A DNA stretch of 64,000 nt, taken from an uncultured SAR86 cluster bacterium (GTDB taxonomy: Bacteria; Pseudomonadota; Gammaproteobacteria; Magnimaribacterales; AG-339-G14). Shown here piece after piece: positions 5,510-36,661 of this stretch (position 1 is its first letter; the number at the start of each line of letters is the position of its first letter). The notes under the pieces are model-generated. The model was given only the letters and a program-made list of their open reading frames with translations, was not told the origin of the DNA and did not search any database. The position numbers and the translations under genes were made by a program. Location: positions 391,935 through 455,934 of the forward strand of contig CACJUN010000001.1 of assembly GCA_902596665.1 (NCBI GenBank). Direction: 5' to 3'.

Positions 5510-6646
5510 TTACATCTCTTCATAAACAGCTTTTTCCATTACTTCTAGTAAACCTTTACATTTTTCATCGTAATGCGGTGATAATTGCATCATTATAGTA
5601 CCGGCAATTTTTGATTGTGGATCAATCCAAAAATAAGTATTAAAAATACCTGACCATGATAAAGATCCTTTTTTTCTTCTCTCGGGTATATCCTCTTCGT
5701 TAATCAAAAATCCGTATCCCCATTTTTTCTTTATCTCCGGAAACCATTCGTTGCCATGAATCAAAACAGGATTAAACGTAGGTTGATAGGAATAATTTAA
5801 ATCACCAATTTGATTTGTGGTCATAAGAGAAGTAAGTGAATCAGATAAAAGTGGATTTGTATCTGAAAGGAAAATTCTCATAAATTTACAATAGTCAGAT
5901 GGATTAGAAAGAATTCCACCGCCACCACTAAAAAATGACTGAACAGAATCATCAAAAAGACCGGTGGAATGAATAAAATTTCCATTATCCATAAGATGCA
6001 TTTCTGCCAATCTATCTTTTCCTAAAAAGTCAGGATCGAAAGAAGTATCATTCATTCCAAGAGGATCAAAGACAAATTCCCTACAAATCTCTTCTAAATT
6101 TTTATTTAATAATTTTTCTAAAATGATTCCAACCCAATCAAGACCGACCCCATATTCCCATCTAGAGTCAGGATGATATGAAAGTGGAACATTAATAAAT
6201 TTACCTTCTTTATCTGTGAGAGGAGCGATCTTTTCTTCTAAGATAAGGTGAGCAAGTAGAGGATCATGAAAATCATATGCAAATCCTGAAGTATGAGCTA
6301 GCAAATGATGAAGTGTGATGTCCTTATTAGCTTTTTCATAAATAACTTTTCCATCTTGAAGTTTTCCTACCTCTAAATCTTTTAGATCTGAATGAAAATT
6401 ATGAACAGGTTTATCTAAATCAATCAGTCCAAGTTCAACACACTTTAGTGCTGCAAAGGTAACAATAGGCTTTGTCATCGATGCAATTCTGTAAATAGTA
6501 CTGTTCGAAGGCGGTTTATCTTCTCCTTCGAGTTGATTGCCGTAGTGCTCATGTAATACTGTTTCGTGCTCATTGGTAACAGCGAATGAAGCAAAAGGTA
6601 TGTTTTCTTGATCTATTTTCTCTATTATTTTTTTTTGAATATTCAT
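5510..6646 (-). CDS. serine hydrolase (beta-lactamase/esterase family)
   Basis: SMTKP (SxxK) active-site motif. The start was moved to the ATG at 6646 (MNIQKK...) because the track's extension to 6685 reads through tRNA-Gly. Confidence 0.8.
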   Translation of the reverse strand: MNIQKKIIEKIDQENIPFASFAVTNEHETVLHEHYGNQLEGEDKPPSNSTIYRIASMTKPIVTFAALKCVELGLIDLDKPVHNFHSDLKDLEVGKLQDGKVIYEKANKDITLHHLLAHTSGFAYDFHDPLLAHLILEEKIAPLTDKEGKFINVPLSYHPDSRWEYGVGLDWVGIILEKLLNKNLEEICREFVFDPLGMNDTSFDPDFLGKDRLAEMHLMDNGNFIHSTGLFDDSVQSFFSGGGGILSNPSDYCKFMRIFLSDTNPLLSDSLTSLMTTNQIGDLNYSYQPTFNPVLIHGNEWFPEIKKKWGYGFLINEEDIPERRKKGSLSWSGIFNTYFWIDPQSKIAGTIMMQLSPHYDEKCKGLLEVMEKAVYEEM

Positions 6647-6655
6647 ATTATTCTG

Positions 6656-6730
6656 TGGAGCGGGCAGCGGGAATCGAACCCGCATCGTCAGCTTGGAAGG
6701 CTGAAGTAATAGCCATTATACCATGCCCGC
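6656..6730 (-). tRNA. tRNA-Gly (anticodon UCC)
   Basis: The reverse complement is GCGGGCATGGTATAATGGCTATTACTTCAGCCTTCCAAGCTGACGATGCGGGTTCGATTCCCGCTGCCCGCTCCA. It has a cloverleaf, a GGTTCGATTCC T-arm, anticodon loop CTTCCAA and an encoded CCA. Confidence 0.9.
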
Positions 6731-6828
6731 TTTTTATGAAATTTGATTATACACGTTCTATTTAAACTATAATTCAACTTCTCAAGAGTATGAAAAAAGG
6801 TTTTAATAAGGATTAAATGGAGTTAAAT

Positions 6829-7443
6829 ATGAAATATGTAATTAGTTTATTAATTGTTTTCTTAATATCCTGTTCTACATCAACATCAGATGAACCTAAT
6901 GTGTCTCATGATTCTGATGAGTGGCAAATTTGGGCCTACAGCAAGGCTGCACCTGATTTTATAGGTGAATTTGCAACAATTGTTGGAGGAGACGGAAAAG
7001 TGTTACGGGAAGGATCTAATGGATGGACCTGCACCGCTACGTTAGAAATGCCTGAAGGAGGTTTTGAAACTCCTCAACATGGAAATACCCTTTGTGCTGA
7101 TGAAGAAGGTTTTAAGTGGGCTGAAGCTTACATGACTGGTGGGAAACCTAACATGAAAAGAGATGCTTACATTTGGATGCTAAATGGTGATATGGGCGAG
7201 GATAATATGAATTCAAGCTTCTATGGAGGCGATCACGATAAAGCAAAAATGATGGGACACTTTATCGAGTCAGGGCCACACTTAATGTTGATGCCGAAAG
7301 ATACAAAAACTATAGAAAATTTCCCTACTGATTTCACAACAGGAGCGCCGTATCAGATGTTTAAAGGAACTCCTTATGCTCACTTAATGATCCCTGTAGA
7401 AGGTTATTATGAGTTTCAACCGGATTCTAATCCGCTAAACTAA
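6829..7443 (+). CDS. Met/His-rich lipoprotein of unknown function
   Basis: GGAG lies 6 nt before the ATG at 6829, and the lipobox is LIS|C. No family was recognised. Motifs include MMGHF, HLMLMP and HLMIP. Confidence 0.6.
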   Translation: MKYVISLLIVFLISCSTSTSDEPNVSHDSDEWQIWAYSKAAPDFIGEFATIVGGDGKVLREGSNGWTCTATLEMPEGGFETPQHGNTLCADEEGFKWAEAYMTGGKPNMKRDAYIWMLNGDMGEDNMNSSFYGGDHDKAKMMGHFIESGPHLMLMPKDTKTIENFPTDFTTGAPYQMFKGTPYAHLMIPVEGYYEFQPDSNPLN

Positions 7444-7453
7444 ATTAAAGTTT

Positions 7454-7487
7454 TAAAAAAAGGAGATTTTTTAATCTCCTTTTTTTA
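7454..7487. terminator. bidirectional rho-independent terminator
   Basis: AGGAGATT (7461..7468), loop TTTT, AATCTCCT (7473..7480), flanked by an A-run upstream and a T-run downstream; it lies between convergent genes. Confidence 0.8.
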
Positions 7488-35172: not shown

Positions 35173-35204
35173 ATTAGTACCTCTCGATATTATTTTACTA
35201 ATTT

Positions 35205-35402
35205 TTAGCGATTTTTCATATCTTCTAACGCATCTTTATCTTTTCTAAAATGCAGATAATAGATTTCCGGTAATCCCAGAAGATTAAACACCAACATAAA
35301 AATAAACCAATAACCCTCTTTTGCTTGAGCAGCTTTCCAGCATGCTTTTGCTGTCCAATATATCTCCCATATGGATAAAAGTATCACCGATGCAATAAAC
35401 AT
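35205..35402 (-). CDS. small two-TM membrane protein (PLD N-terminal-like)
   Basis: 65 aa with two hydrophobic helices and Trp-rich flanks. Confidence 0.4.
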   Translation of the reverse strand: MFIASVILLSIWEIYWTAKACWKAAQAKEGYWFIFMLVFNLLGLPEIYYLHFRKDKDALEDMKNR

Positions 35403-35440
35403 AATTGTTTCATTTTAATCTATAAATAATCTGAATGTGA

Positions 35441-36175
35441 TTAGGAAATCAGTATCCAAGTAGCATTTCCGTTTGCAAGTAATTCTTGTTCAGCGCTGTA
35501 CATAGATATATTGGTAAGTATTTTTCTTCCGCTTTTATCAGAATACTTTGCTGTGATGATGCATTTTTCTTCTACTCTTGGAACTCTTATGATCTCTACT
35601 GCTAATTTTCCTAAAACAACTAATTGCCCTTCCAATTCATTTCTATGTCTTCCAAAGTGGGCAGACCATCCGCTTGGACAATCCATGGCACTCCAGAGGT
35701 ACTCGCTGTTAATATGTTTTCCATCAGAGCTGAGGCCTTTATCAGGAACCCAAGTTGTTGAAACTAAATCATCCTCAGAAGGATTGGAATCTAAATCTTG
35801 AGGACCTGTGAATAGTCTCAATCCATCACCTTCCTTTCTATTTGGGCCGCATACAAAACAGTCTGGCAATGCATGAATGGGTTCAAATTTACTTAATCCA
35901 TTTTTAGAACCAAGAAGAGCATCTGAAAAGCTGACAAATTCACACGGATCATTATCGACGGTAGTTGTGTTCGCAATACACACTAAAGTTTCGTCATCAT
36001 ACAATTCATAATTTTCATTACTTTTTTTTAGTAATAACTTTTTCTCAAGCGGTGGTGGCGCAACTAATTTAACTTCACAGCATTTTCCTATTTCTTTTGC
36101 AATCAACCCTGCAACGTACCCTCCATTTCCTGAATTAGGCGGACCATTGAATCTTTTATTAATAAATATCTCCAT
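35441..36175 (-). CDS. hotdog-fold thioesterase-like protein
   Basis: FNGPPNSGNGGYVAG N-terminus and a CFVCGPNRKEGDGLRL block typical of PaaI-like hotdog proteins. Confidence 0.5.
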   Translation of the reverse strand: MEIFINKRFNGPPNSGNGGYVAGLIAKEIGKCCEVKLVAPPPLEKKLLLKKSNENYELYDDETLVCIANTTTVDNDPCEFVSFSDALLGSKNGLSKFEPIHALPDCFVCGPNRKEGDGLRLFTGPQDLDSNPSEDDLVSTTWVPDKGLSSDGKHINSEYLWSAMDCPSGWSAHFGRHRNELEGQLVVLGKLAVEIIRVPRVEEKCIITAKYSDKSGRKILTNISMYSAEQELLANGNATWILIS

Positions 36176-36573
36176 CAGTCATTCCTCATTTCTTTCCAAA
36201 GGTAACGCAATCCATAAAAGGCTGGTAGATAACACAGCAAGGTAAAAATTATCATTTGAGCTACCAAAGGAGGTTCTCGGAAAATTTGAAATGCTGGCGC
36301 ATCGATTATATCTGTAATTAATCTAACTAAAATTAGTATAAAGAGCATAGGTCCATTCTTAATGTAGATAGCAAATACAAAGGCTAATCCGATTGCAAGA
36401 TTTCTTGCAATAAATAGCGTAGTACCAAGATTAAGTTCAGTTACGCCGATCCCAACAAAAAATGAAGGATTTACGAATGCGATGAGCGGACCATAAAACA
36501 TAGGTGAAACTAATAAAAATAAAATTAAAGAAAACCACCAAGGAAAAGAAATTTTTTTATTTGATAATTCCAT
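36175..36573 (-). CDS. small integral membrane protein, unknown function
   Basis: The start was moved to the ATG at 36573 (MELSNKK...); the track's extension to 36630 reads through tRNA-Ala. Confidence 0.5.
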   Translation of the reverse strand: MELSNKKISFPWWFSLILFLLVSPMFYGPLIAFVNPSFFVGIGVTELNLGTTLFIARNLAIGLAFVFAIYIKNGPMLFILILVRLITDIIDAPAFQIFREPPLVAQMIIFTLLCYLPAFYGLRYLWKEMRND

Positions 36574-36585
36574 GATTAGATTATT

Positions 36586-36661
36586 TGGTGGAGCTACGCG
36601 GGATCGAACCGCGGACCTCTTGCATGCCATGCAAGCGCTCTCCCAGCTGAGCTATAGCCCC
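36586..36661 (-). tRNA. tRNA-Ala (anticodon GGC)
   Basis: The reverse complement is GGGGCTATAGCTCAGCTGGGAGAGCGCTTGCATGGCATGCAAGAGGTCCGCGGTTCGATCCCGCGTAGCTCCACCA. The G3:U70 identity pair is present. Confidence 0.9.

Follow-up and report, generated by a model that had tools for sequence, protein, structure and literature searches.

The stretch of DNA analysed here, referred to below as the window, is 64,000 nucleotides (nt) long and comes from a SAR86-clade gammaproteobacterium (GenBank assembly GCA_902596665.1, contig CACJUN010000001.1, positions 391,935 to 455,934); its GC content is about 34% and its coding density about 96%. The subject of this report is the junctions between tRNA genes and protein-coding sequences (CDSs) in this window. 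Both ARAGORN and Rfam called exactly four tRNA genes, all with an encoded CCA end, and each is followed on the same strand by an adjacent protein gene; these tRNA and protein genes all lie on the minus strand. tRNA-Gly(TCC) (6656..6730) is followed, after a 9-nt spacer CAGAATAAT (6647..6655), by the gene for a beta-lactamase-fold serine hydrolase of 378 aa (5510..6646; Pfam PF00144). tRNA-Arg(ACG) (15146..15222) precedes a cytochrome P450 gene (13747..15123; 458 aa; Pfam) with a gap of 22 nt (CCA-TTTTTTTGTAGTAAAATAAGTC-ATG). tRNA-Ser(GGA) (16366..16455) is sandwiched by two same-strand protein genes, an SMP-30/gluconolactonase-like gene (16458..17501; Pfam) with its stop codon 2 nt before the tRNA, and a lysophospholipid acyltransferase-family gene of 284 aa (15503..16357; Pfam PF19576 and PF01553) after an 8-nt spacer, TCATTAAA (16358..16365). 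tRNA-Ala(GGC) (36586..36661) is separated by 12 nt (CCA-AATAATCTAATC-ATG) from the gene for a membrane protein of 132 aa (36175..36573), which gave no Pfam hit and could be placed in no family. On their 5' sides, tRNA-Gly has an 86-nt divergent spacer, tRNA-Ala is divergent from a Baeyer-Villiger monooxygenase (BVMO) gene (ATG 36754) with 92 nt between them, and tRNA-Arg lies 30 nt after the end of csrA (15253..15417, minus strand; 54 aa; Pfam), which carries a strong Shine-Dalgarno (SD) sequence, GGGGGGAG. Reading of the minus strand reproduced the tRNA positions, the gaps of 9, 22, 8 and 12 nt, the start codons and the 2-nt distance upstream of tRNA-Ser as given in a first-pass annotation of this DNA. 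None of the four leaders contains an SD, the duplex with the anti-SD being −1.0 kcal/mol or weaker in each case, again as that annotation had held.

All four start codons were supported by N-terminal conservation in homologues. Acyltransferase homologues down to 57% identity keep the N-terminus MEYIDSKYFSYADPDDP from the first residue on, and the P450 N-terminus M.LELNSDKQP.VKI was conserved from residue 1 at 17 distinct junctions. The Pfam domain of the hydrolase begins at residue 5, and homologues down to 35% identity share its start methionine; homologues of the membrane protein down to 68% identity also start at the proposed methionine. The short leaders would be an annotation artefact if the real start codons were located further downstream, leaving longer leaders with ordinary signals, and the first-pass annotation had named such downstream starts as a ground for rejecting its interpretation. 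Conservation from the proposed methionine in all four proteins, including homologues at 35-60% identity, together with the position of the hydrolase domain, makes this explanation extremely improbable; we found no point in its favour, and start-codon misassignment was discarded. The errors in public gene calls go the other way, two of the genes being extended upstream into the tRNA genes. In many calls the hydrolase has 391 instead of 378 aa and the membrane protein 151 instead of 132 aa, over-extensions of 13 codons (5510-6685, minus strand) and 19 codons (36175-36630, minus strand), respectively, in catalogue proteins P0121, P0158 and P0241. The extra residues are translated tRNA gene, as for MACKRSAVRSRVAPP, which is tRNA-Ala. 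This is of practical consequence for gene calling, since 613 and 630 sequences are clustered under the over-extended forms.

The first-pass annotation had regarded four out of four junctions at 8-22 nt as unusual, and had contrasted their lack of an SD with other genes that carry one. Neither feature proved special when the rest of the window was considered. Same-strand CDS-CDS gaps (n=31) had a median of 2 nt, 23 of the 31 being 22 nt or less, and most junctions in the window are CDS-CDS junctions of −8 to +9 nt; the tRNA-to-CDS gaps exceed the typical gap between two CDSs. Neighbouring genes are co-directional in 33 of 53 pairs, and junctions containing a tRNA number 4 of about 59, there being four tRNAs among 55 genes. 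The chance that all four tRNA-to-CDS gaps fall within 22 nt was estimated at about 0.3. No more than 13-17 of the 55 genes proved to have a recognisable SD, defined by a 4-mer core or by an anti-SD duplex energy of −4.5 kcal/mol or stronger; csrA and the receptor and BVMO genes belong to this minority. The chance that all four tRNA-preceded genes lack an SD is about 0.25-0.3. Because the median gap is 2 nt and only about one-quarter of the genes have an SD, SD-less gaps of 8-22 nt are ordinary in this genome. A similar packing was observed among non-redundant tRNA contexts of SAR86-type loci, where a same-strand open reading frame (ORF) lies downstream of the tRNA in 58 of 66 cases with a median gap of 17.5 nt.

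Such compaction extends to transcription signals. The start codons of one divergent gene pair, 4837 (−) and 4853 (+), are only 15 nt apart (4835-4855), and two maximal ORFs, one starting at 39542 (−) and the other at 39530 (+), share 13 nt at their 5' ends, which implies that promoters reside inside the neighbouring coding sequence or that transcripts are leaderless. Very high coding density, overlapping genes and signals embedded in neighbours are shared with other streamlined marine oligotrophs. Pelagibacter is such an organism, with a median spacer of a few nucleotides. In five SAR86 clades, the CCA end of tRNA-Arg is located 2-3 nt from the stop codon of a convergent gene (at about 11200-11215 in the comparison loci L030, L034, L035 and L037 and at about 5280 in L033). 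With this spacing a terminator fits in neither direction, so that antisense read-through or Rho-type termination would have to follow, and the spacing indicates that the packing is independent of orientation.

Terminators between the tRNAs and the genes that follow are equally difficult to accommodate. None of the four gaps is long enough for a hairpin plus T-run, and a scan of positions 5400-17700, which covers the Gly, Arg and Ser junctions, detected no terminator-like site at any of these three. The comparison with relatives drew on genomic loci with acyltransferase homologues (80), on metagenomic loci with membrane-protein homologues (44) and, for the tRNA-Gly junction, on contigs bearing hydrolase homologues; the SAR86 comparison loci are segments of 20 kb each, not whole genomes.

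The tRNA-Ser junction was conserved in every one of the 31 SAR86 loci, down to an acyltransferase identity of about 56%, and its gap was exactly 8 nt in 24 of the 31, the others having 7, 5, or 2-or-11 nt. This constancy is one of length and not of sequence, since the 8-nt spacer occurs in 15 distinct sequences, with near-complete sequence change between clades. In the same genomes, by contrast, the gap between tRNA-Arg and the P450 gene varies from 15 to 55 nt and that between csrA and tRNA-Arg from 4 to 32 nt. Upstream of tRNA-Ser, every clade has a same-strand ORF whose end lies 2-52 nt from the tRNA; a divergent gene abutting the tRNA, considered for some clades, was ruled out because a same-strand ORF ends there 15-52 nt upstream. 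With a protein gene ending 2 nt upstream in the window, tRNA-Ser has no dedicated promoter in intergenic DNA.

The tRNA-Gly junction was retained at 64% identity of the hydrolase, with a gap of 1 or 7 nt. Upstream of this tRNA, at a distance of 15 nt, lies a candidate extended −10 promoter box, TGTATAAT (6746..6753, minus strand), including the TATAAT at 6751..6746 that the first-pass annotation had noted. The box is located 15-16 nt upstream of tRNA-Gly in all four lineages compared (the window, L081, L084 and L087), even though its flanks have diverged. At 54% identity of the hydrolase, two other genes lie between tRNA-Gly and the hydrolase gene, and a same-strand ORF begins 23 nt after the tRNA, yet the TGTATAAT box is still kept.

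The first-pass annotation had proposed that none of the four gaps can hold a promoter. This proved correct for Ser and Gly. The 8-nt spacer leaves no room for a −10 box, and the CCA end of tRNA-Ser fills the positions −12 to −9 relative to the acyltransferase ATG; likewise, the 3' end of tRNA-Gly fills −12 to −10 relative to the hydrolase ATG. With the invariant tRNA 3' end (..GCCA or ..TCCA) occupying the −10 position and no terminator in between, any transcript covering the start of the acyltransferase or the hydrolase gene should include the tRNA. As judged from these sequences, co-transcription appears to be the only workable reading at these two junctions and is effectively forced.

The following sequence of events is proposed for this class. 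RNA polymerase starting upstream of tRNA-Gly, at the TGTATAAT box, would run on into the hydrolase gene, while at tRNA-Ser read-through from the preceding gene, or transcription from a promoter within that gene, would continue into the acyltransferase gene. By analogy with E. coli, RNase P would then cut at the 5' end of the tRNA, while RNase E-type cleavage immediately after the encoded CCA would free it; the E. coli RNase E cut site is located 1-3 nt past an encoded CCA (PMC2190699). RNA folding predicted formation of the cloverleaves (acceptor stems) of tRNA-Ser, tRNA-Gly and tRNA-Ala, and gave nothing significant around the AUGs at any of the four junctions. The product at the Ser and Gly junctions would be a 5'-monophosphorylated mRNA with a leader of about 5-8 nt. 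Its translation would have to be SD-independent, as it must be for about three-quarters of the genes in the window, and might follow the 70S leaderless-type route, given that 70S ribosomes are able to initiate where the AUG lies at the 5' end of an mRNA or close to it (PMC9031893).

The conserved length of the tRNA-Ser spacer raises the question of whether processing and translation are coupled there. In animal mitochondrial DNA, tRNAs punctuate the protein genes, and the order at tRNA-Ser (stop codon, 2 nt, tRNA, 8 nt, start codon) is similar; in both, excision of the tRNA would leave an mRNA almost without a leader. A stronger version of the co-transcription reading would hold that tRNA excision at Ser and Gly is the obligatory step which creates near-leaderless, translatable mRNAs in the mitochondrial manner, that the spacer length is selected for the distance between cut and AUG, and that tRNA maturation gates translation. 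We consider this version unlikely. If true, it would mean that a free-living bacterium has ribosomes adapted to leaderless or short-leader initiation. The differences from mitochondria are several. In the window, tRNAs occupy only 4 of about 59 junctions, and abutment within a few nucleotides on both sides, a mitochondrial trait, is seen at tRNA-Ser (2 and 8 nt), while tRNA-Gly and tRNA-Ala have 5' spacers of 86 and 92 nt and tRNA-Arg has 30 and 22 nt on its two sides. Mitochondria employ RNase Z and CCA addition, whereas all four tRNAs here encode CCA, which points to a route with RNase E plus exonuclease. The expected leaders of about 5-8 nt compare with 0-3 nt in mitochondria, and SAR86 is a free-living bacterium. 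The likeness of the tRNA-Ser junction to mitochondrial punctuation is an analogy, not membership. The 8-nt spacer may instead represent the shortest distance that allows both the 3' cut and initiation, kept by deletion pressure. In either case, the conserved spacer provides a testable handle on coupling between tRNA 3' processing and translation initiation.

Alternatively, tRNA and protein genes could be adjacent without productive coupling. Promoters would then lie in the upstream CDS or in the tRNA, transcription start sites (TSSs) in the 3' part of the tRNA or in the gap, and the mRNA part of a co-transcript would be degraded after cleavage. Promoters do often appear to lie inside coding DNA in this genome, as judged from the 15-nt divergent spacer and the overlapping genes described above. 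At its 3' end, 24 nt before tRNA-Ser, the SMP-30-like gene carries a promoter-like match, TTGGCT-N18-TAGAAT. Monophosphorylated mRNAs with short leaders are also expected to be unstable, as a 5'-monophosphate favours RNase E. Nevertheless, a promoter located upstream of the tRNA would in any case give rise to a co-transcript, and neither tRNA-Ser nor tRNA-Gly contains a −10-type hexamer (A at position 2, T at position 6) from which transcription could begin between the T-loop and the ATG. The strict 8-nt gap across deep clades argues for a functional junction, and matches in pattern scans such as the one above occur at chance level. Uncoupled adjacency is therefore regarded as improbable, and co-transcription is retained as the reading for Ser and Gly.

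At the other two junctions, the gap itself may carry a promoter, and here the claim that no gap can hold one is too strong. Inside the 22-nt gap between tRNA-Arg and the P450 gene, the hexamer TAAAAT (15129..15134, minus strand) is separated from the ATG by 5 nt and could serve as the −10 box of a leaderless P450 mRNA. Two clades, that of the window and another (L011, L012, L016, L021, L022 and L032), conserve the surrounding sequence AGTAAAATAA; between these two clades, the distance from TAAAAT to the P450 ATG is fixed at 5-6 nt, whereas the distance to the tRNA changes from 11 to 18 nt. The tRNA-Arg-P450 junction is present in most SAR86 clades, the convergent gene taking the place of the P450 gene in the five clades mentioned above. 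In the 12-nt gap after tRNA-Ala, the candidate −10 box is a weak one: AATAAT (36580..36585, minus strand), which matches TATAAT at 5 of 6 positions, is followed by 6 nt and the ATG, and is conserved in close relatives only.

This geometry agrees with the group C leaderless pattern of GeneMarkS-2, in which a Pribnow box is located about 10 nt from the start codon (PMC6028130). The P450 gene shows the pattern (TAAAAT+5) and the gene after tRNA-Ala comes near to it (AATAAT+6), while it is impossible at the Ser and Gly junctions. The same arrangement of a −10-like hexamer, 5-7 nt and ATG was found at further SD-less, first-in-operon genes of the window: TG-TATAAT-tagatc-ATG at the divergent pair (box 4841-4846, ATG 4853, plus strand), TAAAAT+5 (box 22110-22115, ATG 22121, plus strand), TAGAAT+6 (box 42484-42489, ATG 42477, minus strand) and TATAAT+6 (box 54616-54621, ATG 54609, minus strand). 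Such boxes before the ATG were also observed in L011, L016, L027, L030 and L081. In ten SAR86 loci, hexamers with at least 5 of 6 matches to TATAAT that end 5-7 nt before the ATG were counted for 136 genes with a spacer of at least 15 nt, and 17 were found against 5.8 expected, an approximately threefold excess (Poisson P ~1e-4); tightly packed genes gave no excess (3 versus 1.6 expected). These observations suggest, from sequence patterns, that SAR86 transcribes a subset of its genes as leaderless mRNAs. Known leaderless genomes (group C; Deinococcus, mycobacteria) likewise carry a Pribnow-type box about 10 nt from first-in-operon starts (PMC6028130); in SAR86, in contrast, the candidate box is present at only about 12% of wide-spacer genes, and the −35 region of the candidate P450 promoter would overlap the tRNA gene.

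The explanation that we regard as probable, taken as a whole, is that spacer DNA has been almost entirely removed in streamlined SAR86, pressing the tRNA genes against whichever neighbour they have, and that the resulting junctions fall into two classes. The acyltransferase and hydrolase genes would be forced co-transcripts of tRNA-Ser and tRNA-Gly, while the P450 and membrane-protein genes could have leaderless mRNAs of their own, started at a promoter in the gap, in addition to or in place of such a co-transcript. Read-through from the tRNA would still be likely at Arg and Ala because no terminator intervenes. The anatomy, the start codons, the encoded CCA ends, the conservation and the motif enrichment are direct observations; what the transcripts are, where they are cleaved and how they are translated is inferred. 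The obligatory co-transcription put forward in the first-pass annotation is accordingly limited to Ser and Gly: its interpretation, partly supported as a whole, is right for these two, doubtful for the P450 gene, where the gap holds a conserved candidate −10 box, and weak for tRNA-Ala, where the junction has been lost in most relatives (see below).

Several points weigh against this two-class explanation. Promoter-like pattern matches numbered 40 against 48.8 expected, and terminator-like ones 6 against 6.2; in DNA of 34% GC, scans at or below the shuffle expectation are uninformative, and the promoter assignments rest on conservation and position only. Recognisable −35 elements were absent for both gap boxes (P450 and tRNA-Ala), the −35 position for the P450 gene falling within the tRNA 3' end. 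The hexamer sample is small and includes orthologous sites, with the P450 gene counted three times, and collapsing them by hand arithmetic leaves about 15 against 5.8 expected. The contrast between wide and tight spacers (17/136 versus 3/53) is not significant alone, and part of the −10-like peak could stem from an AT-rich ribosome-binding signal of a non-SD type and not from promoters. Leaderless-type initiation in E. coli works less well on a short non-zero leader than on a 5'-terminal AUG, so that leaders of about 5-8 nt are here only assumed to be translated efficiently. Finally, the public assemblies found were all metagenomes, and among them was no metatranscriptome contig spanning any of the junctions.

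The tRNA-Ala junction was kept in only 16 of 42 relatives, with gaps of 1-30 nt, and lost in 26. Conservation in related genomes, which had been suggested as a check on the first interpretation, thus holds for the Ser junction in all 31 loci and for the Gly junction down to 64% identity, but not for the Ala junction. Several relatives carry inserted DNA at this point, between a tRNA-Ala that is itself intact and the membrane-protein gene. The interrupted junctions were observed in L088 (1683-3000), L090 (about 612-691), L091, L094, L095, L109, L126, L128 and L130; in both L088 and L090 a remnant of about 45 nt of the 3' part of tRNA-Ala lies beside the ATG, and the insert of L088 consists of one methyltransferase-like gene of 341 aa. 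The window itself has the uninterrupted form, with a single copy of the tRNA-Ala 3' half and no att-type duplication of this tRNA. As read from these loci, tRNA-Ala(GGC) is a small-island integration hotspot in this SAR86 population.

The conservation data also bear on the broader proposal of the first-pass annotation that expression of the downstream genes is tied to the tRNA promoters. In its full form, all four units would be driven by tRNA promoters and obligatorily co-transcribed, as a regulatory design for the P450 operon, the acyltransferase, the hydrolase and the membrane protein. That each of the four tRNAs is followed by a same-strand, SD-less gene at 8-22 nt, and that the Ser and Arg junctions are widely conserved, fits such a design. 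So do conserved −10-like boxes, not only the one upstream of tRNA-Gly but also, in several clades, one upstream of tRNA-Arg: TATACT (15235..15240, minus strand), 12 nt upstream of the tRNA 5' end and a low-confidence candidate −10 box for tRNA-Arg, was conserved in the window clade, and cTGTAgAAT is located 8-10 nt upstream in other SAR86 clades. The spacing, the lack of SD and the co-orientation are, however, all typical of this genome, and the P450 gap holds a conserved −10-like box of its own at leaderless distance. Partners have also changed: the tRNA-Ala junction is gone from 26 of 42 relatives, with a gene cassette inserted in some, the gene next to tRNA-Gly differs at 54% identity, and tRNA-Arg is followed by a convergent gene in five clades. 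tRNA-Ser, with its upstream neighbour 2 nt away, has no intergenic promoter to offer. Furthermore, no link in codon usage was detected between any of the four tRNAs and its downstream gene (ranks 26-39 of 55). A four-for-four design of this kind is thus unlikely, and the proposed tie between expression and tRNA promoters was not borne out in that form.

Within the two-class explanation, the arrangement is an extreme, compaction-driven variant of the known co-transcription of tRNA with mRNA, as in E. coli tufB and metY, and no new kind of element. In E. coli thrU-tyrU-glyT-thrT-tufB and metY-rimP-nusA-infB, as in SAR86, tRNAs head a unit that runs into protein genes, and they are freed by RNase P and a 3' endonuclease, as would be the case in SAR86. 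The spacers of E. coli are 114 nt (thrT to tufB) and 206 nt (metY to rimP), and these leaders carry a normal SD, whereas those in the window are 8-22 nt without SD. Unlike the two E. coli units, moreover, tRNA-Ser of SAR86 has a protein gene 2 nt away on its 5' side.

The E. coli csrA-serV-argV/Y/Z/Q locus (NC_000913.3, 2817784-2819146) also resembles the Arg region, with csrA followed by same-strand tRNA-Arg(ACG) and with a tRNA-Ser nearby. This common order of csrA and tRNA-Arg(ACG) points to an ancient, inherited gammaproteobacterial linkage that was compressed in SAR86. The distance from csrA to the tRNA cluster is 315 nt in E. coli and that to tRNA-Arg 4-32 nt in SAR86; the last tRNA is separated from the next gene by 280 nt in E. 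coli (argQ to yqaB) and from the P450 gene by 15-55 nt in SAR86. The tRNA-Ser isoacceptors differ, being GCU at the E. coli csrA locus and GGA upstream of the acyltransferase gene in SAR86. In the literature searched, we found no description of the embedding of tRNA genes in SAR86, and nothing directly relevant on tRNA punctuation in bacteria or on transcription start sites or cultures of SAR86.

If the two-class explanation is correct, a free-living bacterium tolerates tRNA genes within protein operons at single-digit spacers, and its translation would be largely SD-independent, including leaderless-type initiation. Metatranscriptomes of such organisms would have to be read accordingly with respect to operon boundaries, to processed versus primary 5' ends and to antisense read-through where terminators do not fit. 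The length-conserved 8-nt spacer after tRNA-Ser and the indication of leaderless-type promoters in SAR86 are the features most worth pursuing.

Some minor observations were made at these loci. Several short contigs break at a tRNA; these ends were considered as transcript ends and rejected as an assembly effect. In the window clade only, the 3' end of tRNA-Arg (GUGCCAU) and the P450 start (AUGGCAU) can pair over 7 bp in the precursor before processing (15121-15152, minus strand). The fold of the tRNA-Arg construct, in which no cloverleaf was predicted, was not significant (z = −0.85), and the pairing is probably coincidental.

In some clades (L013, L015, L027 and L040), the P450 gene is followed by tRNA-Val(GAC), at about 12573-12716, with cTGTAAAAT 15 nt upstream of the tRNA. 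A Coq7-like gene of 171 aa begins 58-59 nt after this tRNA, and in L027 it has TAAAAT 7 nt before its ATG. The tRNA-Val/Coq7-like unit is a candidate for another tRNA that precedes a leaderless gene.

The tRNA-Ser junction was absent from alphaproteobacterial acyltransferase homologues (PS1, OCS116, Rhizomicrobium and others). The homologues of PS1 and OCS116 (L018-L020, L024-L026, L028, L029, L031 and L036) share 55-60% identity with the window protein and have no flanking tRNAs; the distant SAR86 homologues, at 56-62% identity, are no closer to it. Horizontal transfer of the acyltransferase gene among co-occurring marine lineages is possible.

The P450 gene is followed in the window by genes for a DUF1295 protein, a steroid-5-alpha-reductase-like protein, a zinc-type alcohol dehydrogenase and an MFS transporter (7657-15123, minus strand), and an MMPL protein with a sterol-sensing domain is encoded nearby (24005-26449, minus strand). 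This neighbourhood suggests a cluster for catabolism of lipid or sterol-like compounds, in keeping with SAR86 ecology.

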